Shown: positions 28,195 through 41,360 of the stretch, piece by piece
Layout of the letters: each line of letters starts with the position of its first letter
Numbering within the stretch: the stretch's first letter is position 1
NCBI GenBank assembly: GCA_963675595.2
Contig: CAXXLZ010000002.1
Location: forward strand, 2,080,001 to 2,144,000
Direction: 5' to 3'
Source of the DNA: Thermodesulfobacteriota bacterium
GTDB taxonomy: Bacteria; Desulfobacterota; Desulfarculia; JACQYL01
Length of the DNA: 64,000 bases
Notes under the pieces: generated by a model
Database searches by the model: none
Seen by the model: the letters and a program-made list of their open reading frames with translations, nothing else
Told to the model about the DNA's origin: nothing
Position numbers and translations under genes: made by a program

Positions 28195-29370
28195 TCACGC
28201 TCCCACCAGCGCACCGTAGACAATCCCGGCGATGGTCGACAAAATCACGATGATTCCACAGAACACGACCGTCTTTTTCGCCCCCATGACTCCCGCGATG
28301 ACCAGCATGTTGGGTAGAGAAAGCGCCGGCCCCGCCAGCAAGAGCGCCAGCGCCGGCCCCTTCCCCATGCCGGCTCCCAGCAATCCCTGAAGGATGGGAA
28401 CCTCCGTCAAGGTGGCGAAGTACATGAAGGCTCCGGCCACGGCCGCGAACAGGTTCGCCCAGATTGAATTTCCTCCCACCAAGGTCTGTACGTAGGCTTC
28501 CGGAATCAGGGCCGGGTGCCCCGGACGCCCCAACAGAAATCCGGCCACCAGGACCCCCGCTCCCAGCAAAGGGAAGATCTGTTTCATGAATCCCCAGGAG
28601 GAGTCCACCCAATCGATCCGTTCCTCTTTGGAGAACCATTTCATCAGCATCAGAAACATCACCCCCAGAAACACGGCGGTCAGCACCCATTTGACCCTGA
28701 AGATCGCGGCCCACAGACCGCCCTCACCGGGGGCAGGCTGTGCAAAAGCGGCAAACACCAGGATCAACACGAGAGACAATACGAAGAGGGCGTCCTGCGT
28801 GAGCGTTCGCCCTTTCTCTTCCTCGTCGGGAAGGACAATGTCGCCTGCGAGGCGCGCGGCATCGTCTTTCCTGAAAATGAGAGCCATGAGCAATCCCGTG
28901 ACCACGGCGAAGATCACCGCGCCTATGGCTCGGGCGAGGCCCAATTGCCATCCCAGGACCCGGGCCGTAAGCACAATGGCCAGCACGTTGATGGCCGGTC
29001 CCGAGTAGAGGAAGGCCGTTGCCGGTCCGATGCCCGCGCCTCGGGTGAAGATGCCGGCGAACAAGGGGAGAACGGTGCAGGAGCAAACGGCCAGAATGGT
29101 TCCGGAAACCGACGCCACCGAATAGGACACGAACTTGTTGGCCTGAGCCCCGAAGTATTTGAGCACCGACGCCTGGGACACGAAAACCGCAATGGCCCCG
29201 GCGATGAAGAAAGCGGGAATCAGGCAGGTGAGCACGTGCCGGCGGGCGTAGTCCTGGAGCATGAGAAAGGCTTCCAGTCCCGATTGCCTGATTACGGGGG
29301 AACTCCAGGGCACGAAGTACGCGGCGGCGAACACGGAAACAATGAGCAACAGCTTGGACTTTTCGGACAT
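28195..29370 (-). CDS. ArsP/DUF318-family permease
   Basis: AVCSCTVLP, FLYSGPAINV, MYFATLTEVP, GPALSLP. Confidence 0.88.
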   Translation of the reverse strand: MSEKSKLLLIVSVFAAAYFVPWSSPVIRQSGLEAFLMLQDYARRHVLTCLIPAFFIAGAIAVFVSQASVLKYFGAQANKFVSYSVASVSGTILAVCSCTVLPLFAGIFTRGAGIGPATAFLYSGPAINVLAIVLTARVLGWQLGLARAIGAVIFAVVTGLLMALIFRKDDAARLAGDIVLPDEEEKGRTLTQDALFVLSLVLILVFAAFAQPAPGEGGLWAAIFRVKWVLTAVFLGVMFLMLMKWFSKEERIDWVDSSWGFMKQIFPLLGAGVLVAGFLLGRPGHPALIPEAYVQTLVGGNSIWANLFAAVAGAFMYFATLTEVPILQGLLGAGMGKGPALALLLAGPALSLPNMLVIAGVMGAKKTVVFCGIIVILSTIAGIVYGALVGA

Positions 29371-29385
29371 GGGCTTATCTTCCTA

Positions 29386-29403
29386 TATACCAATATTGGA
29401 ATA
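29386..29403. promoter_or_regulatory. putative ArsR operator (second copy)
   Basis: Imperfect palindrome TATACCAAT-ATTGGAATA, similar to 29758-29775. Confidence 0.55.
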
Positions 29404-29418
29404 TTATGGCCAAAACTT

Positions 29419-29748
29419 TCATCCCAACACTTTGAACGCCCGGCTTCGCTGCTGAATCACTTCCAAGGCGCAATTAAAAAAATTCAACACGCAAGGAGTC
29501 TCCAAATGATAGAAGATTTTGGCGCCGTCTTTGCGGTCGTCGACGATCCCGGCGTTCTTGAGCACGGATAAATGTTTGGACACCGTGGGTTGGCCGACGC
29601 CCAGCCTCTCGGCCAGCTCCCCCACGCACAAATCCTTTTCTCGCAGCGCATCCACGAGCATCAGCCGGGTTTCGTGTGCCAAAGCTTTGGCCACCTGTGC
29701 CCTCAATCGAAAAAGCGCCAATGATTCCGCATTGATTTCGTTTCCCAT
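29419..29748 (-). CDS. arsR: ArsR/SmtB family repressor
   Basis: KALAHETRL, LCVGEL, QPTVSKHLSVLK wHTH; PCVLNFFNC. Confidence 0.92.
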   Translation of the reverse strand: MGNEINAESLALFRLRAQVAKALAHETRLMLVDALREKDLCVGELAERLGVGQPTVSKHLSVLKNAGIVDDRKDGAKIFYHLETPCVLNFFNCALEVIQQRSRAFKVLG

Positions 29749-29755
29749 GTTTTTT

Positions 29756-29784
29756 ATTATTCACATATGGGAATATAATGTCAA
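29756..29784 (-). promoter_or_regulatory. sigma70 promoter with overlapping ArsR operator
   Basis: TTGACA (29784-29779), 17 bp, AATAAT; palindrome TATTCACAT-ATGGGAATA at 29758-29775. Confidence 0.7.
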
Positions 29785-30012
29785 GAGCAAAACAGCGCCC
29801 ACGGGAGGCTTCCTTCCCCTGGAAATTTCAGAGCTCGTGCCGTCCGCGCTTCTGCAACTCAATGCCGACCCACCTCGTATCAGCGGGCGGAAGCCTGAAA
29901 ACAGACTCCCGCCGAAGACTCTTCCGCTGCTGCTCCTGAAACGCTCAGGCCGGCCTTTTCCGAAAGCCCCTCCAAATGAGGCCGAGCACGACGAGACCGT
30001 GGTGTCGCACCG

Positions 30013-30327
30013 TCAGTTAAAAATTTTGCCCAACAGCCCCTTCTTCCTAGTTTCAGGAACGGGCATGCCCAATTCCCTGCAAATCGCAGTCTCAAGGACA
30101 TTCTCCTCCACGTCCGATCCTTCCACCACGATCTTGTCTCCTACCATGACGGCCGGAGCCACCGGCAAATCCAGTTCAAAATATTCGTCGGTGTTGTACG
30201 CCGCTTTGGGCTTGGATATGGTTTCGATTTCGATTTGGTATTTTCCGCCCAACCTGGGCATCATTTCTTTGAAATGCCTTCAGGGCCTTCCGTTGGGTTC
30301 GTTGAGAAAAAACCTGACCTTTAACAT
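30013..30327 (-). CDS. tsoC: NEPxGxxU-motif selenoprotein (TsoC-like, thioredoxin-like fold), Sec at codon 16
   Basis: SD AGGAG, ATG 30327, MLKVRFFLNEPNGRP-TGA(30280-82)-RHFKEMMPRL in frame with track ORF 30013..30264; hairpin GCCCA-GGT-TGGGC at 30247-30259; family name recalled. Confidence 0.88.
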
Positions 30328-30441
30328 GTTGGCTCTCCTTACCTGATGAACTGCTTAGGCTCCGGTCTTCTGGCAGCCGAATTCCGCGGAGCGGGATCGG
30401 GCCGGAGCCGGTTTTCCCATAGCCTGAATGCCCCCACCAAG

Positions 30442-30948
30442 TTAGAATTTCTGGGTCTTGATGCTGTGGTAGACCGCCTTGCACATGCTGGAAGATCCGC
30501 CCGCAACACCTTCGCGATTCTTGAACCCTTCCGTTTGCTTCAGACTCTCCAGATACGTCTCCGGGTCATCCAGCTCTACCCACGCCTGTTCCACAGGCAC
30601 CTCCGGTCTAATACGGAAAAGCAGGCCGTCCCCGTACGGGTCTTTCACGACCACCCCAGGGTCCTCGGACACGGCCCTGTTGAATCGGATGGTCCCCGCC
30701 ACGGGAGCTTCCAGGTATTTCAGTTTCGTGGTAATGGCCACCCCTATCGCCCGGCCTTTCTCCACCGACTCACCCTCGTTCACCAACTCGCTCAAGTCGA
30801 CAAAGGCGCCTACCAGTACGAGGGTGGGTTCTGCCAGGCCGAAAACCAGCTCCGCGCCTTCCCGGCGTCCCCACAGGCCCTGCTTGGCGTCGTATTTCAA
30901 GTCTTCCGGGATTTCCACCGTTCTCCCTAAAAACTTATCGATGATCAT
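30442..30948 (-). CDS. glycine cleavage H-like (lipoyl-domain) protein
   Basis: IPEDLKY...W...FG, EAPVAGTI..N, DPYGDG.LF GcvH pattern; divergent lipoyl loop ITTK; C-terminal extension with Cys. Confidence 0.75.
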   Translation of the reverse strand: MIIDKFLGRTVEIPEDLKYDAKQGLWGRREGAELVFGLAEPTLVLVGAFVDLSELVNEGESVEKGRAIGVAITTKLKYLEAPVAGTIRFNRAVSEDPGVVVKDPYGDGLLFRIRPEVPVEQAWVELDDPETYLESLKQTEGFKNREGVAGGSSSMCKAVYHSIKTQKF

Positions 30949-30970
30949 GACGATTCCCCGCCGTCTCCTT

Positions 30971-32755
30971 TCATTCCGGTTTGTGCGTGCCCCCCGCTCT
31001 CCTTGCCGCTCTTGGCTCGGGAGCCGAAACAACCGCATCCATCAACTCCAGGAACCTCGAAGGCGGCACGAAGTCCACCAACCTGAGGTCCCTCCTTTCC
31101 TTTCCATGCCCGTCCAGGAAGACCACCGTGGGAACACCCTTGATTCCGTATTCCCTCAACAGCCGTTCGTTCAGTGGATTTCCACTCTTGGTCACGTCGA
31201 TCTTGACCATGACGACTTCCTCATCTCCCCGCTTCACGATCCGAGGATCATGGAACACTTCCTCATCGAGAGCTCGGCAGGGAGAACACCAATCCGCGTA
31301 GAAGTCCATGATGACGGGCTTGTCGGCTTCCACCGCTTGGCGAAGCAGATCGTCCGAGTAGGCGTGCCAAGAAACGCCGGGACCTCTGACGGCCCATTCC
31401 CCCACCAGAAGGCAGGACACCAGCACACCCAGGATGAGGACTCCTCGTTTCATCCAAACGAAAGCCGAAAAGGCGGCCCTGGTCTTGTCCAACAAGCCCA
31501 GGTGAACGCCGGCCGCCAAAGCGACGCCGGCTGAGAGAAAGACGAAAGTCGTTTCCGACAGAAGCGGCTGAAGGAAGTAGGCCGCCATGCCCACCAGAAT
31601 CCAGCCCATGAGCTTGCGCACCCACACCATCCATTCCCCGGACCGGGGCAGGCGCTCGATCTTTCCTGAGAACAACGCCAGAAGGAACAGCGGAAGGCCG
31701 AGACCGAGGCTTAGGGTGAAAAACACCAGGAATCCCATCCAGGCCGATCCGGTGCTCGCCACCCAGGTGAGCAGTCCCAGAACAAAGGGACCAATGCATG
31801 GGGCGGCCACCACCCCCAGGGTGATCCCCATGAACAGGGATCCGAACCACCCCGCATGCGGTTTGGAGGCGGCTTGCGTCAAGAATCCGGGCAAGCGAAG
31901 CTCCCAGAATCCGAACATGCTGCTCGCGAAAACCAGCAACACCACGGCCACCGTGACAAGCACCGCCGGATTCTGCAGCAATGCTCCTAAAAGACCGCCG
32001 GTAAGGGCGGCGGTGACCCCCAACGCCGAATTGGTGAGGGCGAGCCCGGCCACGTACAAAACGCCGTGCACCACGATCCTTCCTCTCCCGGTCCCCGACC
32101 GGCCGCCGAAGTAGGCGGCCGTAATGGGAATCAACGGGTACACGCAGGGAGTCAGGTTCAGGGCCACGCCACCCAGAAAGATGCCCAGTAGTGTCCACAG
32201 GGCGGCCAACCCGGTGAAGGAACCGGGGGACAATGGCTGCCCGGCGCCTACCGAAGCCTGCGGCTTCGAACTCGCCGTGGGACGCCCCAGTCCTTGCCAC
32301 TCGGGGAATCCCTGAGGATAGCGATATACGTTGCGGTAGCCCAATTGGACGGCCACCCGGGCCGCCGAGTCGCTGCGGACTCAGGTGAGCCCCGCTCAGT
32401 AGAACACAAGGGTCCGATCCCGATCTCCTCCCAAGTAGGCTTTCAGTTCCTCTTTCTTCGTGAAACGGGCCCACCAGGTGGGTTCCATGGGGAAGTTGCC
32501 CGCACCTTGGATATGTCCGGTTCGGTATTCCCATTCCTGACGCGTATCCACCAGAAGGAGTCCCTGACGGTCCTTGCGGTAGCGTTCCCAGAGTTCATCA
32601 GCGTTCATCAGCCGGTAGCCGCCGGCTCGGGCTTCGGCTTCAACGTCCTCCCAAGTTGCCTGTTGTGGAGCCACGGGCCTGCTCGTGTACCACGCGATAC
32701 CGGCGGCGGCCGACATGCAAAGAAGTACTATTATGATCTTATTTATCTTTTTCAT
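30971..32755 (-). CDS. tsoB: rhodanese-DsbD-thioredoxin fusion selenoprotein (TsoB-like), Sec at codons 120 and 125
   Basis: Rhodanese (DTRQEWEYRTGHIQGA) ends TLVFY-TGA-AGLT-TGA-VRSDSAARVAVQLGYRNVYRY, in frame with the DsbD part (LTPCVYP, APCIGP, WCSPC); hairpin at 32349-32365. Confidence 0.88.
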
Positions 32756-32882
32756 GAAGGCATCTCCACTTCGCACCGGTTCCCCGCACCTCCCTTTACT
32801 CCGATGCGGAGGATCCCGGGCCGCCTCTAATTCGCCGTCTCGATAGTCGTTCGTGTCGCCCGACCGGACGTTGTCAGCGGCT

Positions 32883-34010
32883 TCATGTACCGCCCGCGGG
32901 ACTGCACGCGGGCGCTTCCGTCGGTTTGTTCCCGAGTTCGGATACCGGTTTGTTTCCGGGTTCCGCCGCCGGTCGCTCGGACGGGGACATGGAATCGTAA
33001 AGCAGCTTGATCCGTGTGGCTCCCACGGTCATGGCCACCATCATGGCTTCCTTCAGTTCCTCTTCACCGGCTCCCAATTCCCTCGCGACCGCAAGGCAAT
33101 AGTTGGCTCATGGATCGCAGCCGGCGGCCAGGGATGCTCCGAGGGCGATCAAGTGCTTGGTCTTCCGGTCCAGAACACCGTCCGCGTAAACGCCTTCAAA
33201 AAAATCCCCATATTTGTCCAATGGATTCATGTTCGACCCCTTGTCCCTCAAAGAATAAACCGGCGGCGACTCCGCCCGGATCAACACGCCCTTGGTCACG
33301 GGGGAGGAATCGAAACCCGTTTCGGACACCAACTCCACATGCGTGAATCCCGACGCCTGAATCATTTCCAGGAAAACCTTTCCCGGTATCGCGCCGCCCA
33401 GTCAATGGTGCCATTGAGATATCCGGCCGGCCTTGTCGGAAGGCGCCTCGCCCACCAGTACCTGATCCGCGATCATCAGGCGCCCTCCGGGCCTCAGGAC
33501 CCGACGTACCTCGCGAAGCGCCGCCTTCTTATCCCCGATCAGGTTGAACACGCCGTTGGAAAGCACTACGTGGAAACTGCGGTCCGGAAAGGGCAGGTCC
33601 GTGGCGGACCCTTCCAGGAAAGTCACGTTTCCAAACCCGGTCAGGTGCCGGTTCCGCTCCGCTCGGTGCAGCATCTCGGGCGTCATGTCCACTCCGGCGA
33701 CACGCCCCTCGGAACCCGTCATGAAGGCGGCCGCCAGCGAATCCACGCCTCCGCCGCAGCCGATGTCCAGCACGGTTTCGCCTTTTTCCACCGGACCCAG
33801 AAAGAAGGGATTCCCCACACCGCAATAAGACGCTGAGACCTCGTCCGGGAGATTGCGAAGGAAATCGGGGTCATATCCCAACAATTCGAGTCCCTTCCTC
33901 CCCGTGGGATATCGAAACATGCCCTCGGGACTTCCGGCCGCCTTCGAATACCTGGCCCGGATTCCCTCATGAATTTTTTCCAGATCGTCGCCGGATAGTG
34001 TTAGTTCCAC
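32883..34010 (-). CDS. ArsM-like SAM-dependent methyltransferase fused to AhpD/CMD domain; Sec at codons 203 and 301, possibly also 376
   Basis: Three track ORFs (33402..34010, 33108..33365, 32883..33077) are one frame joined by TGA: WHH-U-LGGA and AAGCDP-U-ANYC; SECIS-like hairpins at 33368-33386, 33081-33096, 32857-32870. Confidence 0.85.
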
Positions 34011-34158: not shown

Positions 34159-35543
34159 CATAAGCGCTAACTTAAGCCTTTTGTTTTGGTGAGGTTTATG
34201 GTACCGTTGCCGCCAAAGGAGGTGGCAATGGAGCGTCTCGTTTTTTCCGAGGAAATGGAAGACTGGGAAGTTCTCCAGGGTTTTCTTCCCGATGGCTGGC
34301 AATCCAAAGCAAGGGAACTTGGTGCCGTTGTCAGATACCGTAAGTTCGTGGACGCCGAAGGTCTGTTGCGAACGCTTCTGATCCATCTGGCGGAAGGTTG
34401 CTCACTTCGGCTGACGGCGGCCAAAGCCAGGTTCGGCAACATTACGTCGATTTCCGACGTAGCTCTCCTAAAACGACTGAATAAATGCGGAGAGTGGTTT
34501 CGGTGGATGGCCTTAGGGGTCATGGAGAAATGGTTTCGAAAGCTGCCCGCCGTTGTTTTTGGAGAGAATTCACGCATCAGGTTGATCGATGCCTCCACCA
34601 TTCAAGAACCTGGAAGTACCGGAACGACTTGGAGGGTCCATTATTCCATACAATTGCCTTCGCTGCGCTGCGACGAAGTCTATGTAACAGACCCCAAGAT
34701 CGGAGAATCCTTCACCAATTTCAAAGTCCATGGCGGTGAACTTCTTGTAGCGGATAGAGCCTATTGCACACCAAGAGGAATTCACCATGTCATAGACAAC
34801 GGCGGCGACGTCCTGGTTCGAATGAAACACCGTGTCGCCATGGTGGACAAGCAAGGGGAACGATTCCAATTACTCCCTCATCTAAGGACGTTACGTGTAA
34901 ATAAGCTTGGCGACTGGGATGCATTCGTTCCATTTGAACAACGCTTGGTTGCAGGTAGAATCTGTGCCATCAAGAAGAGCAAAGACGCCACTGAAAAAGC
35001 TCGTAAAGCGATAGAAAAAGAGGCGAGGAAAAAAGGTCGCCAAGTTACTCCGGACACCCTCGAAGCGGCGGCCTACATATTTGTTTTCACAACATTGGGC
35101 CGTGAAATCTCGCCCTCTCAGGTCCTCGAGATGTACCGAGGTCGATGGCAAATTGAACTCGCTTTCAAGCGTCTAAAGTCCATTCTCGGTTTAGGCCATC
35201 TTAGAAAGACCGACATCGAAGGAGCCAAGGCCTGGATCCATGGGAAACTACTGGTGGCTTTCTTAGTGGAGGCCATGATCGCCGCAGGCGAATCTTTTTT
35301 TCCCTGGGGATACCCACTCCAAAAAGAACCACCGTAGAAATCGATGCTTCTGGAGAGAGACCATGTTTATGTTACACCTGCTGAAACAAGCCGTGAACCC
35401 TAAACTCGGCTTGGCCGAATGCATTGCCGGCTGGGATAACATATCTTTTTATTTGCGAGAACCGCCAAGGAAACGAGCACTTCAGCGGCTGATTCCTCAG
35501 ACGGAAAGAAGCATAGCAAACAATGCTTAAGTTAGCGCTTATG
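34159..35543 (+). mobile_element. IS4-family element, copy 1 (1385 bp)
   Basis: Perfect 19-bp IRs CATAAGCGCTAACTTAAGC; 11-bp TSD CCCCCTGCCCC. Confidence 0.95.
34228..35337 (+). CDS. IS4-family DDE transposase
   Basis: IDASTI, ADRAY, YRGRWQIELAFKRLKS; SD AGGAGG. Confidence 0.95.
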   Translation: MERLVFSEEMEDWEVLQGFLPDGWQSKARELGAVVRYRKFVDAEGLLRTLLIHLAEGCSLRLTAAKARFGNITSISDVALLKRLNKCGEWFRWMALGVMEKWFRKLPAVVFGENSRIRLIDASTIQEPGSTGTTWRVHYSIQLPSLRCDEVYVTDPKIGESFTNFKVHGGELLVADRAYCTPRGIHHVIDNGGDVLVRMKHRVAMVDKQGERFQLLPHLRTLRVNKLGDWDAFVPFEQRLVAGRICAIKKSKDATEKARKAIEKEARKKGRQVTPDTLEAAAYIFVFTTLGREISPSQVLEMYRGRWQIELAFKRLKSILGLGHLRKTDIEGAKAWIHGKLLVAFLVEAMIAAGESFFPWGYPLQKEPP

Positions 35544-35555
35544 CCCCCTGCCCCC

Positions 35556-36940
35556 CATAAGCGCTAACTTAAGCCTTTTGTTTTGGTGAGGTTTATGGTA
35601 CCGTTGCCGCCAAAGGAGGTGGCAATGGAGCGTCTCGTTTTTTCCGAGGAAATGGAAGACTGGGAAGTTCTCCAGGGTTTTCTTCCCGATGGCTGGCAAT
35701 CCAAAGCAAGGGAACTTGGTGCCGTTGTCAGATACCGTAAGTTCGTGGACGCCGAAGGTCTGTTGCGAACGCTTCTGATCCATCTGGCGGAAGGTTGCTC
35801 ACTTCGGCTGACGGCGGCCAAAGCCAGGTTCGGCAACATTACGTCGATTTCCGACGTAGCTCTCCTAAAACGACTGAATAAATGCGGAGAGTGGTTTCGG
35901 TGGATGGCCTTAGGGGTCATGGAGAAATGGTTTCGAAAGCTGCCCGCCGTTGTTTTTGGAGAGAATTCACGCATCAGGTTGATCGATGCCTCCACCATTC
36001 AAGAACCTGGAAGTACCGGAACGACTTGGAGGGTCCATTATTCCATACAATTGCCTTCGCTGCGCTGCGACGAAGTCTATGTAACAGACCCCAAGATCGG
36101 AGAATCCTTCACCAATTTCAAAGTCCATGGCGGTGAACTTCTTGTAGCGGATAGAGCCTATTGCACACCAAGAGGAATTCACCATGTCATAGACAACGGC
36201 GGCGACGTCCTGGTTCGAATGAAACACCGTGTCGCCATGGTGGACAAGCAAGGGGAACGATTCCAATTACTCCCTCATCTAAGGACGTTACGTGTAAATA
36301 AGCTTGGCGACTGGGATGCATTCGTTCCATTTGAACAACGCTTGGTTGCAGGTAGAATCTGTGCCATCAAGAAGAGCAAAGACGCCACTGAAAAAGCTCG
36401 TAAAGCGATAGAAAAAGAGGCGAGGAAAAAAGGTCGCCAAGTTACTCCGGACACCCTCGAAGCGGCGGCCTACATATTTGTTTTCACAACATTGGGCCGT
36501 GAAATCTCGCCCTCTCAGGTCCTCGAGATGTACCGAGGTCGATGGCAAATTGAACTCGCTTTCAAGCGTCTAAAGTCCATTCTCGGTTTAGGCCATCTTA
36601 GAAAGACCGACATCGAAGGAGCCAAGGCCTGGATCCATGGGAAACTACTGGTGGCTTTCTTAGTGGAGGCCATGATCGCCGCAGGCGAATCTTTTTTTCC
36701 CTGGGGATACCCACTCCAAAAAGAACCACCGTAGAAATCGATGCTTCTGGAGAGAGACCATGTTTATGTTACACCTGCTGAAACAAGCCGTGAACCCTAA
36801 ACTCGGCTTGGCCGAATGCATTGCCGGCTGGGATAACATATCTTTTTATTTGCGAGAACCGCCAAGGAAACGAGCACTTCAGCGGCTGATTCCTCAGACG
36901 GAAAGAAGCATAGCAAACAATGCTTAAGTTAGCGCTTATG
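35556..36940 (+). mobile_element. IS4-family element, copy 2 (appears identical, tandem)
   Basis: Same IRs; identical ORF set offset by 1397 bp; 11-bp TSD CCCCTGCCCCC. Confidence 0.95.
35625..36734 (+). CDS. IS4-family DDE transposase (identical to copy 1)
   Basis: Identical translation in ORF track. Confidence 0.95.
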   Translation: MERLVFSEEMEDWEVLQGFLPDGWQSKARELGAVVRYRKFVDAEGLLRTLLIHLAEGCSLRLTAAKARFGNITSISDVALLKRLNKCGEWFRWMALGVMEKWFRKLPAVVFGENSRIRLIDASTIQEPGSTGTTWRVHYSIQLPSLRCDEVYVTDPKIGESFTNFKVHGGELLVADRAYCTPRGIHHVIDNGGDVLVRMKHRVAMVDKQGERFQLLPHLRTLRVNKLGDWDAFVPFEQRLVAGRICAIKKSKDATEKARKAIEKEARKKGRQVTPDTLEAAAYIFVFTTLGREISPSQVLEMYRGRWQIELAFKRLKSILGLGHLRKTDIEGAKAWIHGKLLVAFLVEAMIAAGESFFPWGYPLQKEPP

Positions 36941-37859: not shown

Positions 37860-38210
37860 TCAGAAGTTGAAGACCTGGGCTTCGGCCGCCAGCTCGATGA
37901 GATGCGGTCCTCCGTCCAGCACCATATTGGAGTAGAATTTGGCCTCGTCCACCTGACGAGCGCGGGCGCAGGGAATTCAGACTCCCACGGGGATCTCGTG
38001 CTCCACCAGGTGGGGGAAATAATCGTTGGGACAATCTCCCGTTTTGGTTTTTTCGTTGAAATCCCGGGTGGAATCCGCCCAAAGCGTTCCGTCGTCGATG
38101 AAGAACAGATTGACCGCATGCCCGGCCGCATGGGCCACTTTGGCCAGCTGGAAACAACGCGTAGCCGAGTCCACCTCGTCCCTGCTCAATACAAACAGAA
38201 ATTTCGCCAA
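37860..38210 (-). CDS. DsrE/F-family selenoprotein (UxxC), Sec at codon 78
   Basis: KFLFVLS...VNLFFIDDG...PVGV-TGA-IPCARAR...EAQVFNF; hairpin CTCGTC-AGGTG-GACGAG at 37944-37960. Confidence 0.88.
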
Positions 38211-38264
38211 ACAGCGCCTCCTTTCTTCTCGGCCGAGACTCCGAAGAGGCCGAGGTTCATGGTT

Positions 38265-38738
38265 TCAATCGCTTGGAATGGAAGGAATCTTCCCCTCCGT
38301 TGCGAGCTTCTTGATCAAGAAACGGACTCCCGACCCGGAAACGCCCAGGTCTTCGGCAAGGCGAGCCGGATCGGCGCTTCCCTTGCTGCGCACCAAGGCG
38401 AGAACCTCCTCCTCCAGCTCTTCCAGCCAGTCCTCGAAGAGCACCAAAACTTCGGGCTCCGTAACCGCCTTCAATTGTTCGGATCGGCTCACCTTCTCCA
38501 CCAAACTTCGGCACATCTGCGTTGGATCGACACCTTCGTCCATGCATTCGGCCAGTCAACGGTGCACCATGCCGGCGGTCTTTTCATCGGCTCGCTCCCC
38601 GAAGAGTTCGACGACGAACCTGAGACGCTCCTCTTCTTCCATGAGCGCCAGACGTTTTCCGAGCAGGGAGGAAAGCAGGGGAAGCGCGTCCCGGTCTTCC
38701 ATGGAGTCCACCATCCGTTCCAAAGTCTCCAAATTCAT
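38265..38738 (-). CDS. tsoA: TsoA-like (xULAxC motif) selenoprotein with C-terminal winged HTH, Sec at codon 61
   Basis: Track ORFs 38556..38738 and 38265..38543 join as GMVHR-TGA-LAECMDEG; hairpin at 38523-38542 with AGGTG loop; family name recalled. Confidence 0.83.
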
Positions 38739-38758
38739 GGCGTTTTCCCCGTTGCAGG

Positions 38759-39124
38759 TTAGAAGATTTTGGCCGCTTTCCCGAGATCTTCGGCGAGGGA
38801 GGAAAGGCTCGTCAGGATTTCCCCCACACGTTCATCGGCCGACCGGTAATAAATGAAGGGGCCCCGCCGCTCCACTTGCACCAGAAAGGAACGTTTCAGT
38901 TCTTTGAGATGATGCGAAACCAGGGGTTGGGAGAGGCCGAGTTCCTCCACGATTTTCGACACGCTCTTTTCCTTGCGGCTCACACATAGAAGAATTCTCA
39001 GGCGATTCTCATCGGAAAAGCACTTGGACAGGAAGGCGACACCCTGAAGGTTCAGTGAATCCACGAGCCGCGTTGCGGAATCGACGGGCATGGGCGTCTG
39101 ATTTCGAGACGGAGGTTCAAGCAT
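38759..39124 (-). CDS. ArsR/SmtB family regulator heading the selenoprotein operon
   Basis: FSDENRLRIL, LSQPLVSHHLKELK, RRGPFIYY; start uncertain. Confidence 0.9.
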   Translation of the reverse strand: MLEPPSRNQTPMPVDSATRLVDSLNLQGVAFLSKCFSDENRLRILLCVSRKEKSVSKIVEELGLSQPLVSHHLKELKRSFLVQVERRGPFIYYRSADERVGEILTSLSSLAEDLGKAAKIF

Positions 39125-39163
39125 GCGGGTCCGTTCGCAATGAGGGTTCAACGTAATCAACAT

Positions 39164-39205
39164 ATCAATATACATTTATATATTGATCCCGCATGTCCTT
39201 GTCAA
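39164..39205 (-). promoter_or_regulatory. sigma70 promoter with overlapping palindromic operator
   Basis: TTGACA (39205-39200); ATCAATATA-N6-TATATTGAT at 39164-39187 covering the -10 region. Confidence 0.7.
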
Positions 39206-39357
39206 GCCTTCTTATGCGCCCCCTTTGAACCACGGCCCTTCAACGACCCTCTCACATCTATCCGCCGATCGTACGAAGTCATTGGTAAGCATTTGAAATC
39301 TCATCGCTATTCCAAATCACACTTTCTCGGGTTCTCGACCCTTCCCAAAAGGAAACT

Positions 39358-39386
39358 TTGACATTCTCGATCTTTTGAGCTATTTT
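39358..39386 (+). promoter_or_regulatory. sigma70 promoter of the small peptide gene
   Basis: TTGACA, 17 bp, TATTTT. Confidence 0.65.
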
Positions 39387-39419
39387 ATATCGGAATCATC
39401 AATAACAGGAGACAAAAAG

Positions 39420-39500
39420 ATGCTTACCCTGAAGTCCGTAGAGAAGAAGGTGGTGCGTCAAGGGAACAAGCCGGCTACGTGACACGGCCCTGAAGCGTAA
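39420..39500 (+). CDS. candidate 26-aa selenopeptide MLTLKSVEKKVVRQGNKPAT-U-HGPEA
   Basis: SD AGGAGA at 39407-39412, ATG 39420, TGA 39480-82, TAA 39498-500; hairpin AACCGCC-GGTC-GGCGGTT with loop 24 nt after the TGA. Confidence 0.7.
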
Positions 39501-39578
39501 ACCGCCGGTCGGCGGTTCCAAAACGGGTAAACCCCAACGGACGAGCTTCAAACCATGGACCCCGTTCCGTCGGGACCC

Positions 39579-39614
39579 AAAAAAACCCGGGATCGCTCCC
39601 GGGTTTCTTGTTTC
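39579..39614. terminator. intrinsic terminator, likely bidirectional
   Basis: AAAAAAACCCGGGA-TCGC-TCCCGGGTTTCTTGTTT between convergent genes. Confidence 0.8.
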
Positions 39615-39638
39615 TCAATCCCGATGCTTCACGCGCGG

Positions 39639-41360
39639 TCAATATGGACGCGACGATTCCCCCGTTTTGTCCCGCACCTCCATGGACCCGACCGCATAGA
39701 GCCGTAACGCTCCCGTCACGCCTTTAACATTCGCCTCAAAGGGCCGCAGGACTTTCACATAGTCCCGCACCGACTCCAGAACGGCCTCCGACACCACCAC
39801 TTCACCCTCCCGGGCTTCGGTTTGGATCCGCTGAGTCAGGTTCACGGCGGCGCCCACAATGCCGTATTTCGCGCGAATCTCGGAACCCACATTCCCCACG
39901 ATCACCTCACCGGTGTGCACCCCGATTCCCATGCTCAGGCTCGGCAGGCCCGGGACCTTCTCCAATTCGTTCATCATGTCCAAGGCAACCTGCATATCCA
40001 ACGCGCATCTCACCGCATCGAGGCTTCTGTCCTCCGGAACGGCGTCCAACGGATCGAAAAACACCAGCATGGCGTCCCCGATAAAATCCACGATAATGCC
40101 TTCATGTGAACGGACCACCTGGATCATTCTCGAATAATACCGGTTCAGTACTGTGATCACCGTTTCCGGCTCCATTCGCTCGCACAACGCGGTAAATCCC
40201 CTGAGGTCGGACATCAAAATAAACACTCTGCGTTTCTCTCCGCCCAACCGGGTGGATTCCGGCCGCCGCAGGAGCTTTTCGGCGACTTCACGATCCATGT
40301 AGCGGCCGAAAGTCGTTCGTATGAACTCCTGTTGCCTCAAAGACTCCACCATGGCATTGAAGCCGGCGGCCAGCCGTCCCACCTCATCGGAAGTTCGGAC
40401 CTTCACGGTTTCGCCGTAATCGCCCTCGGCCACCCGTTCCGCAGCCAGAGCGATCTCCCGAATGGAGCGCACGGTTCGAGAGGACACATATTGGATCAGA
40501 AACAGCACCATCCCGATACACAACGCGCCCAAGAGCCCGAAGTAGTTGCGAAAACGTATGATGGGCTTGAGAATCTCGTCGCCCTGCGCGAAGACCACGA
40601 CGCTCCAGGGCGCCTGCTTGAGGCGAAAGAAGCCGGCCACTTCTTCCGGAGGATGCCCTTCCCCGAAGATCGTACCGGAAGGCCTCTCTTTCATCGCCTG
40701 AAGCACCCGGGCTTCCAATGGGCTGCCGCTTCCTCCCAGCACTCGCCTTCCCGAATCTCCGGACGAAGTGTGAGCCAGGTAGCGCCCGGAAGCGTCCACC
40801 AAGCAGCCCTTCACTCCCTGCCACCAACTGCTCGCCACCAGATCGGCAATCAGATGATGCAGTTGAACGGTCACAAGAACTCTGCCGACGATGCGTCTCT
40901 GTTCGTCCAGCAACTCGGATACGAGTGTCACGCTTTCACTGCCCGTATCCGGATCCAACTCGGGAGGAGTCACCACCGACACGCGATCCTGCGTAGACAT
41001 CATCCGTCCGCCCATGTGGCGGCCGCCGAAGGCGAACATGGAAGACTCATTAGACCATTCCAGGTCCACGCTTTGAACGCCGTCCAGACTCCTGAGCTCC
41101 TCCAGCACGTGTTCTTGAGCCCTCAATCCTCCGCCCACCGGGATTCGGCGAAGCAGGGAAAGCCACTGAACGGGTTCCTCCAGACGCATGTCGACCTGAT
41201 GGGCGGCCCACCCCAGCTTGAGGATGGCGGCTTCCTTCCACTGATCCAACATGATGTTCCGCGCATAGATGAATCCCACGAATCCCGTCAGGAAAAGAAG
41301 CAGCGCCACCGGGCACAGGACCCAGATCATCAATCGCCTGCGTAGGCTTGAGGCTTTCAA
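39639..41360 (-). CDS. membrane adenylate/guanylate cyclase (periplasmic sensor-HAMP-class III cyclase)
   Basis: Two TMs, HAMP DEVGRLAAGFN, ILMSDLRGFT, FIGDA, GNVGS...YGIVGAAVNLTQR. Confidence 0.9.
   Translation of the reverse strand: MKASSLRRRLMIWVLCPVALLLFLTGFVGFIYARNIMLDQWKEAAILKLGWAAHQVDMRLEEPVQWLSLLRRIPVGGGLRAQEHVLEELRSLDGVQSVDLEWSNESSMFAFGGRHMGGRMMSTQDRVSVVTPPELDPDTGSESVTLVSELLDEQRRIVGRVLVTVQLHHLIADLVASSWWQGVKGCLVDASGRYLAHTSSGDSGRRVLGGSGSPLEARVLQAMKERPSGTIFGEGHPPEEVAGFFRLKQAPWSVVVFAQGDEILKPIIRFRNYFGLLGALCIGMVLFLIQYVSSRTVRSIREIALAAERVAEGDYGETVKVRTSDEVGRLAAGFNAMVESLRQQEFIRTTFGRYMDREVAEKLLRRPESTRLGGEKRRVFILMSDLRGFTALCERMEPETVITVLNRYYSRMIQVVRSHEGIIVDFIGDAMLVFFDPLDAVPEDRSLDAVRCALDMQVALDMMNELEKVPGLPSLSMGIGVHTGEVIVGNVGSEIRAKYGIVGAAVNLTQRIQTEAREGEVVVSEAVLESVRDYVKVLRPFEANVKGVTGALRLYAVGSMEVRDKTGESSRPY

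Follow-up and report, generated by a model that had tools for sequence, protein, structure and literature searches.

A stand-alone 26-codon gene with an in-frame TGA and a hairpin at its stop codon: a probable family of bacterial micro-selenoproteins

A 26-codon gene with an in-frame TGA, found in the genome of a Thermodesulfobacteriota bacterium, probably represents a genuine new micro-selenoprotein family, in which an independent monocistronic gene encodes a 26-residue peptide and which belongs, as far as searched, to one order. The gene lies in a 64,000-nucleotide (nt) stretch of contig CAXXLZ010000002.1 (assembly GCA_963675595.2, positions 2,080,001 to 2,144,000 of the forward strand), which is called the window here; positions are those of the window unless another contig is named, and its genome is designated G000. 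As judged from the sequence, the novelty is that of a new family with an unusual architecture within a known mechanism, and its members would be unusually small for bacterial selenoproteins. A tiny selenoprotein had been proposed at this site in a reading of the letters alone (the sequence-only reading). This part of the proposal gained support from a frame kept across the TGA, a covarying hairpin resembling a selenocysteine insertion sequence (SECIS) and the presence of the selenocysteine (Sec) machinery; the insertion of Sec is itself a prediction from sequence only.

The whole transcription unit is small and complete and occupies 39358–39616 on the plus strand, as read from the sequence and from scans. 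A promoter-like site of the sigma-70 type (39358–39386) consists of TTGACA (39358–39363), a 17-nt spacer and TATTTT (39381–39386); two such sites were seen in 38700–40000, against 0.5 expected from shuffled sequences. A Shine-Dalgarno (SD) sequence, AGGAGA (39407–39412), precedes the ATG at 39420 by 7 nt. The open reading frame (ORF; 39420–39500) has 26 codons and a TAA and would encode MLTLKSVEKKVVRQGNKPAT-U-HGPEA. It is composed of the ATG, 19 more sense codons, the TGA at codon 21 (39480–39482), which is the candidate Sec codon, the codons CAC GGC CCT GAA GCG, and TAA at 39498–39500. The SECIS-like hairpin (39500–39517) has a stem of 6–7 bp, in which A39500 and ACCGCC (39501–39506) pair with GGCGGT (39511–39516) and T39517 around the loop GGTC (39507–39510). 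All seven pairs are perfect, the energy is -11.0 kcal/mol, and the first pair uses the final A of the stop codon. An untranslated 3' spacer (39518–39582) is followed by a terminator-like stem-loop (39583–39616), the stem of which (39583–39606) has 10 pairs and a 4-nt loop and leads into a T-rich tail. Because this separate terminator follows, the hairpin is not the terminator. The promoter, SD sequence, 26-codon frame, TGA, hairpin past the stop and terminator that the sequence-only reading had described were all found in place, and the observation of a complete mini-gene unit in the window is confirmed.

The same unit was found in other genomes. A DNA search of 40 relatives matched the region around the TGA and the hairpin in G002, G003 and G004, each of which proved on reading to hold the full unit. 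G002 belongs, with G001, to the same GTDB family as the window genome, and G003 and G004 to a second family of the same order. A six-frame profile of the four peptides, with stops read through, matched four of 95 genomes of the class (G000, G002, G003 and G004; E 1e-10 to 5e-15), each match containing exactly one TGA; it gave no match in G001, the third genome of the window's family, which is 95% complete. In a 401-genome sample of the phylum, the same profile matched G000 only, plus two weak stop-free matches. These two were rejected as homologs, one being the CxxCH haem site of a cytochrome c and the other a small lipoprotein of the Binatus type. A DNA search of the window's own genome revealed no paralog of the unit and no nucleotide match to its formate dehydrogenase (FDH) genes.

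A degenerate DNA pattern, A-T-(TGA/TGC/TGT)-H-G-P-E-x-stop, in which Cys codons were allowed (TGH), was used for wider scans. One genome per species (185,579 genomes) yielded five loci, three of which were true and were again those of G002, G003 and G004; the other two were unrelated TGC sites without start, SD sequence or hairpin. The JGI metagenomes yielded 16 loci. Five were true units, all with TGA, and added the new peptide variants L021 and L031, while 11 were rejected as unrelated TGC sites, seven of these being copies of one conserved gene off-frame. A homolog search had been called for in the sequence-only reading, and its outcome is a unit that recurs in three related genomes and five metagenome contigs beyond the window, with TGA at the proposed Sec position in 8 of 8 further true copies and no Cys form. 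In total, seven distinct DNA versions (that of the window and the loci L002, L003, L004, L021, L031 and L034) encode six distinct peptides of 26–32 residues. Since the whole unit recurs in other genomes, it is not a chance ORF.

All the peptides share an N-terminus, M-L-x-[ILV]-[KR]-x-[VI]-E-x-K, and a C-terminus, A-T-U-H-G-P-E-x-stop. M1, L2, E8, K10 and A-T-U-H-G-P-E are invariant in the six distinct peptides, and the middle is Lys-rich and variable in length and sequence. Within the A-T-(U)-H-G-P-E codons there are four variable sites, all of them third-position and synonymous, and 0 of 12 first and second positions vary; this synonymous-only variation is seen in full in the four copies that were found independently of the degenerate pattern. 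The final codon is unconstrained and encodes Ala, Lys or Ser, and every lineage has its stop, TAA or TAG, exactly five codons after the TGA. Similarly, L004 and the near-identical L034 differ at two places in the ORF, both synonymous. An antisense ORF was tried as the constrained frame and rejected; it is open, but at these sites it accumulates non-synonymous changes. Between the window and contigs of related strains (three runs, low depth, weak support), 0 differences were seen in 39379–39652, and the 23 variant rows, at 22 places, in 39100–39800 (701 bases) all fall outside that interval. By the criterion used for selenoproteins, the frame is conserved on both sides of the UGA, the support being modest as only five codons follow.

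The hairpin likewise recurs. In all seven versions its 6-bp stem begins directly behind the stop codon, and 42 of 42 pairs are canonical. The stem covaries, with 4, 2, 3 and 3 pair types at positions 1–4 and changes on both sides at four of the six positions. The loops have 3–5 nt and always contain GG (GGTC, GGC, GGT, CGGGA, CGGGC and TGGAT), every version has its first loop base 27 nt from the U of the UGA, and the energies range from -9.0 to -12.1 kcal/mol. The bacterial SECIS (bSECIS) model of Zhang and Gladyshev, as quoted in the portions of PMC13188914 consulted, has an upper stem of 4–16 bp, an apical loop of 3–9 nt, a G in the first two loop positions, a UGA-to-loop distance of 16–37 nt and a minimum free energy of -7.5 kcal/mol or below; the peptide-gene hairpin lies within every one of these quoted limits. 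For comparison, 240 of 63980 positions in the window (0.38%) start a 6-bp hairpin with a 3–5-nt loop and a G in the first two loop positions. No columns are conserved between lineages after the hairpin in the alignment, and GC-rich stem-loops, seen by eye, likewise lie 3' of the peptide gene in the other lineages.

The SelB-wing domain (PF09107) and tRNA-Sec (RF01852) score over their cut-offs in G000–G004, and thus in all carrier genomes. In G000, three TGA-containing FDH genes have GC-rich hairpins with GG loops (one reads GTCGCC-GGGCT-GGCGAC) about 21 nt from the UGA. A DsrE-like ORF near the peptide gene carries the hairpin CUCGUC-AGGUG-GACGAG; as measured by eye, 25 nt separate the UGA from the loop of this hairpin.

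Upstream, TTGACA-17-TAnnnT is kept in 7 of 7 aligned versions, as is GGAG or GGGG at the SD position. The related strains vary at 39354, 39355, 39373, 39376 and 39378, none of which is in either promoter hexamer. Between the -10 hexamer and the SD sequence lies a candidate operator, a 17-nt A/T-rich element of the form YATY-N9-RATR (39388–39404), with both 'AT' cores invariant in all seven versions. Its arms form a perfect 11-bp palindrome in L003 (G003), 5 bp in L004 and L034, 4 bp in L002 and L031, and 3 bp in L021 and in the window, where the inverted repeat is weak (TAT...ATA). A related box, YCRATR, is found inside the -35/-10 spacer, the boxes spanning 39364–39404 in the window. From their sequence, these boxes look like a putative repressor site. 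The only other exact match in G003 to TATCGA-N5-TCGATA, the 6-N5-6 core of its palindrome, falls inside a coding region, and no second exact site was found in G002. Another repeat, a perfect 9-bp inverted repeat ATCAATATA-N6-TATATTGAT at 39164–39187, is located just upstream of the likely start (39124) of a divergent ArsR-family gene, of which it is probably the autoregulatory operator, judging by its position; it is 170 nt from the peptide promoter and has only the 7-mer ATCAATA in common with the 5' region of the peptide gene.

The proposed mechanism is as follows. The near-consensus promoter and SD sequence would drive synthesis and translation of a short mRNA. The UGA would reach the A site while the hairpin is just outside the ribosome, its loop 27 nt from the U, and the loop would recruit SelB-GTP-Sec-tRNA(Sec), so that Sec is inserted at the UGA. 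The ribosome would read the last five codons, terminate and release the 26-residue peptide; as the stem adjoins the stop codon or overlaps with it, the hairpin would be forced open while those codons are read. Under a shortage of selenium or SelB, the chain would be ended by release factor 2 at residue 20, and only a truncated basic peptide would be made.

Several points weigh against a micro-selenoprotein. Translation past the UGA is argued from five codons; in H-G-P-E there are two variable sites, both third positions, a pattern with a chance of about 0.09 by our own count, and in L021, L031 and L034, found by the pattern only, A-T-x-H-G-P-E is kept by construction of the search. The UGA-to-loop distance of 27 nt, although near that of the DsrE-like ORF, is 6 nt longer than in the FDH genes of the same genome. 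The known lineages are few and related, comprising two GTDB families of one order and metagenome contigs, and no conserved neighbour, partner or regulator of the gene was found. Also, no true Cys form was detected in the 95 class genomes, the 401 phylum genomes, the 185,579 species genomes, the JGI metagenomes or 1.84 billion representative proteins. The last search, by a profile from an alignment headed by the 32-residue member, gave no homolog; its three matches were short repeated fragments of tandem-repeat proteins of 297–1056 residues and were rejected. Protein libraries are nearly blind to such peptides, because gene calls seldom include ORFs shorter than about 30 codons. A Cys-containing homolog exists for nearly all selenoprotein families, according to the portions of PMC13188914 consulted, and since none was found here the usual argument from Cys/Sec pairs is missing; Cys homologs are a usual, not an obligatory, feature of such families.

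The main rival to the micro-selenoprotein reading, which we consider unlikely, is that the TGA acts as an ordinary stop. Only a basic peptide of 20–26 residues would then be made, and the following 15 nt and the hairpin would be an RNA element for stability, processing or protein binding. The shortness of the frame after the TGA with its modest coding statistics, the lack of a Cys form and the conservation of the N-terminal 10 residues on their own would all agree with this. Against an ordinary stop, the changes after the TGA are limited to wobble positions and the last codon, and an in-frame TAA or TAG is kept exactly five codons on in every lineage; in addition, the hairpin follows the SECIS rules (GG loop, fixed 27 nt, suitable energy), resembles the SECIS-like elements of the FDH genes and the selenoprotein candidate of G000, and has a separate terminator downstream. 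A less probable alternative is that the decoding itself is what matters, the unit being a sensor of selenium or Sec-tRNA status, or an RNA that titrates SelB and so modulates its own mRNA or the availability of SelB. Regulatory SECIS-like elements have a precedent in the control of selAB in Escherichia coli, and a strong promoter on a tiny unit, with the SECIS placed where a terminating ribosome must melt it, would suit such a role. Against it, no downstream gene is there to be controlled, as a terminator follows and each lineage has convergent or unrelated genes next to the unit, the 3' untranslated region is not conserved, and both peptide ends are conserved as amino acids with synonymous changes, which a pure RNA or SelB decoy would not need.

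The sequence-only reading had also raised a precursor of a peptide that is made by the ribosome and modified after translation (RiPP), with a basic leader, Lys-rich in this case, and a Sec core; with the maturase encoded elsewhere, the product might be a thio(seleno)oxazole, methanobactin-like or similar compound. This idea fared poorly and is now considered very unlikely. In its favour are the size, the leader-like N-terminus, a weak match of one of six members to the methanobactin-like MovA (E 0.02) and a true SbtM radical-SAM gene elsewhere in G000. Yet none of the lineages has a conserved gene for a maturase, a protease or an exporter within ±7 kb, in keeping with the earlier remark that no modifying enzyme is adjacent. 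SbtM (TIGR04082) is over its cut-off only in G000 and G001, whereas among these five genomes the peptide is in G000 and G002–G004; MbnB/TglH (DUF692, PF05114) is in 0 of the five; and apart from the MovA match the peptides match neither the SbtA model TIGR04081 nor any other NCBIfam peptide model. The full-length SbtM matches are at G000:C2:3658234-3659790, 1.5 Mb from the peptide gene, and at G001:C117:36364-37920 (731 and 741 bits; cut-off 350), and from these matches G000 probably has a selenobiotic or thio(seleno)oxazole Sec-peptide system elsewhere in its genome. The least probable alternative, and an extremely unlikely one, is a non-coding small RNA in which the ORF is incidental. A short unit with its own promoter and terminator, and a fold of 39395–39620 with a z-score of -2.3, would agree with it. 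On the other side, conservation extends to the SD sequence, the start codon and the peptide, with synonymous substitutions in its codons, and does not include the 3' part; a search of the whole window with Rfam at the gathering threshold gave five tRNAs only, with no match at the peptide locus.

The sequence-only reading could assign the peptide to no known family, and the same result was obtained from the databases. The window peptide has no match in Pfam and none among NCBIfam families (0 families at E<=10 in release 20.0, in which the recent Haft models are included), and for the six peptides together NCBIfam gives a single match, the weak one to MovA. In the portions compared of a table of 119 prokaryotic selenoprotein families (PMC13188914), the supplements of which could list small candidates, no such motif or size was present. 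Judged from sequence, the peptide gene is set apart from the 'star' families, VhuU and SbtA by its stand-alone 26–32 codons, its own motif and the lack of a detected Cys counterpart.

The C-terminal-Sec 'star' families (UXX-star, NF041114/NF041211; KCU-star/DUF466, NF033934; SaoC, NF040734) also have Sec a few residues before the stop. As described in the Haft and Gwadz preprint and PMC13188914, in the parts consulted, they resemble the peptide gene further in having a SECIS hairpin at or behind the stop, and in being recognized by a G-containing loop and not by long downstream homology. They differ in having roughly 60–160 or more residues and, mostly, Cys homologs, whereas the peptide described here has 26–32 residues ending in T-U-H-G-P-E-x and no Cys form was found. 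An archaeal precedent for a very small selenopeptide from its own tiny gene is VhuU, with a size of about 25 residues. VhuU is a Sec subunit of the F420-non-reducing hydrogenase of Methanococcus (PMC2933860). It is encoded in the vhu operon, is the split-off C-terminus of the hydrogenase large subunit and depends on an archaeal SECIS in the 3' untranslated region; the peptide gene, in contrast, is stand-alone, has no hydrogenase context and carries a hairpin of the bacterial type. The SbtA selenobacteriocin or thio(seleno)oxazole precursors (TIGR04081) are likewise short ribosomal Sec peptides of anaerobic genomes of the deltaproteobacterial type. SbtA sits beside SbtM, whereas the peptide has no adjacent maturase, and none of its six members matches TIGR04081. 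SbtA also has an SGUG motif with two Sec (PMC13188914 Table 1, in the portions consulted), in place of T-U-H-G.

The closest likeness in motif is to FDH. UHxP is the Sec motif of formate dehydrogenase alpha and of formylmethanofuran dehydrogenase B (FmdB) in the portions consulted of PMC13188914 (Table 1). The spacing of U-H-x-P is identical in the peptide, Thr precedes Sec as in an FDH of G000 (...ART-U-HAPT...), and the SECIS style, a GC-rich stem and GG loop, is similar. The peptide is not FDH alpha, however; it has 26 residues and no Pfam match, lacks the molybdopterin-oxidoreductase domain (TIGR01553; PF00384), is about 30-fold smaller and has only a four-residue motif in common with the enzyme. 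This resemblance, noticed after comparison with many motifs, may be convergent or due to chance. The FDH-type genes with an in-frame TGA in G000 are at C2:18810-20081, C2:3228833-3230104 and C2:4120743-4122185, with the contexts CARL-U-HSST, CART-U-HAPT and QARI-U-HSAT, and a Cys paralog with CARTCHAPT (C2:3232133-3233404) lies directly downstream of the second of these genes. A similar string was seen in the Binatus-type lipoproteins, an uncharacterized family of about 85 residues (272 matches, many labelled Candidatus Binatus; for example locus L013, 1459–1713 on the minus strand, in G401). They have an invariant D-H-x-D-C and a C-terminal ...A-K-C-H-G-[PA]-E..., with Cys where the selenopeptide has Sec; the common C/U-H-G-P-E string may be convergent, yet it hints at a ligand motif.

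With regard to function, since the neighbourhoods share nothing, what remains to argue from is the motif. If the gene is real, the role tentatively favoured for the peptide is that of a small selenolate-imidazole ligand for a metal or metalloid, or of a redox or relay selenol, on a Lys-rich carrier, its working part presumably being the invariant C-terminal Thr-Sec-His-Gly-Pro-Glu. The metal-scavenging and selenium store or sensor roles suggested in the sequence-only reading are likewise speculative. In FDH-type enzymes Sec ligates Mo or W, with a neighbouring His in the active site. A more specific and rather doubtful possibility is that the peptide is a free-standing FDH-like loop, Thr-Sec-His-x-Pro, made without a maturase and acting in trans as a carrier, buffer or chaperone for Mo/W or a soft metal, or as a mimic that engages FDH maturation, and that the ratio of full-length to truncated product reports selenium status.

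The neighbours of the gene differ from lineage to lineage. In the window they are the divergent ArsR gene (PF01022; 38762–39124) and a convergent HAMP/cyclase gene (39642–41360, minus strand). G002 has genes for a chemoreceptor and for a large membrane protein there. A convergent DUF2333 gene adjoins the peptide gene in G003, G004 and L021, together with TraB-like or Mla-like genes, while L031 has a DUF169 gene and one for an acyl-CoA dehydrogenase. An all-against-all BLASTP comparison of the ORFs within about ±7 kb of eight loci revealed nothing common across lineages; the second-family loci are mutually syntenic (the DUF2333 gene and others), and one generic histidine-kinase match was obtained. 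The operon opposite the peptide gene in the window encodes ArsR, a winged helix-turn-helix (wHTH) ORF with TGA, the DsrE-like ORF with TGA, and HMA and glutaredoxin-like genes. The sequence-only reading had placed the peptide gene divergent from a Sec operon, which holds in the window genome and is not conserved elsewhere. In G002–G004 the nearest ArsR genes lie on other contigs or at distances of tens of kb, and because they are not near the peptide gene there, the arrangement in the window is, as judged from these sequences, a local coincidence or at most lineage-specific. A pair like SmtB/SmtA, with a divergent ArsR next to a small metal-binding protein, was rejected likewise, as ArsR adjoins the gene in the window only.

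Other features were noted in this region. One frame at 37863–38738 (minus strand) contains a 157-codon wHTH ORF with an in-frame TGA at codon 61 (38558) and the next TGA at 38267, and then a DsrE-family ORF, whose in-frame TGA is at 37979 (...VGV-U-IPCARAR...) and which ends at a TGA at 37862; read from the sequence, the frame could hold a pair of neighbouring selenoprotein genes or encode a single fused protein with three TGA codons. Beside this selenoprotein/ArsR operon, identical 383-residue transposase-like proteins are encoded at 34186–35337 and 35583–36734 (plus strand), as two insertion sequence copies 1.4 kb apart. Farther off, a cluster at 28195–34010 (minus strand) resembles genes for metalloid or thiol handling, with an ArsP-type permease, a second ArsR-family gene, a GcvH-like protein, a DsbD/thioredoxin-like membrane protein, a rhodanese-like ORF and a SAM methyltransferase; four of these calls were checked with Pfam and the rest were made from translations.

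The methods by which bacterial selenoproteomes have been catalogued depend on Cys homologs, on known domains or on a minimum length of the ORF, and because of these requirements (BSepDB has a minimum ORF of 200 nt) a 26-codon gene known only with Sec is invisible to them. The interest of the gene for the fields of selenoproteins and small proteins is bounded by its narrow taxonomic range. The compact unit, composed of a promoter, 26 codons and a hairpin of about 18 nt, would be a convenient natural test-bed for the rules of SelB/SECIS spacing, and the T-U-H-G-P-E motif offers a testable idea of selenolate-based metal or redox chemistry on a peptide. Should the doubtful reading as a free-standing FDH loop be true, the peptide would stand for a new functional class among selenoproteins, that of a peptide acting as a ligand and not as an enzyme, and would be, to our knowledge, among the smallest bacterial selenoproteins. 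If the micro-selenoprotein family itself is genuine, then bacteria have micro-selenoproteins, a SECIS can lie wholly behind the stop codon of so small a gene, and the selenoproteome counts of selenium-rich anaerobes would be too low.

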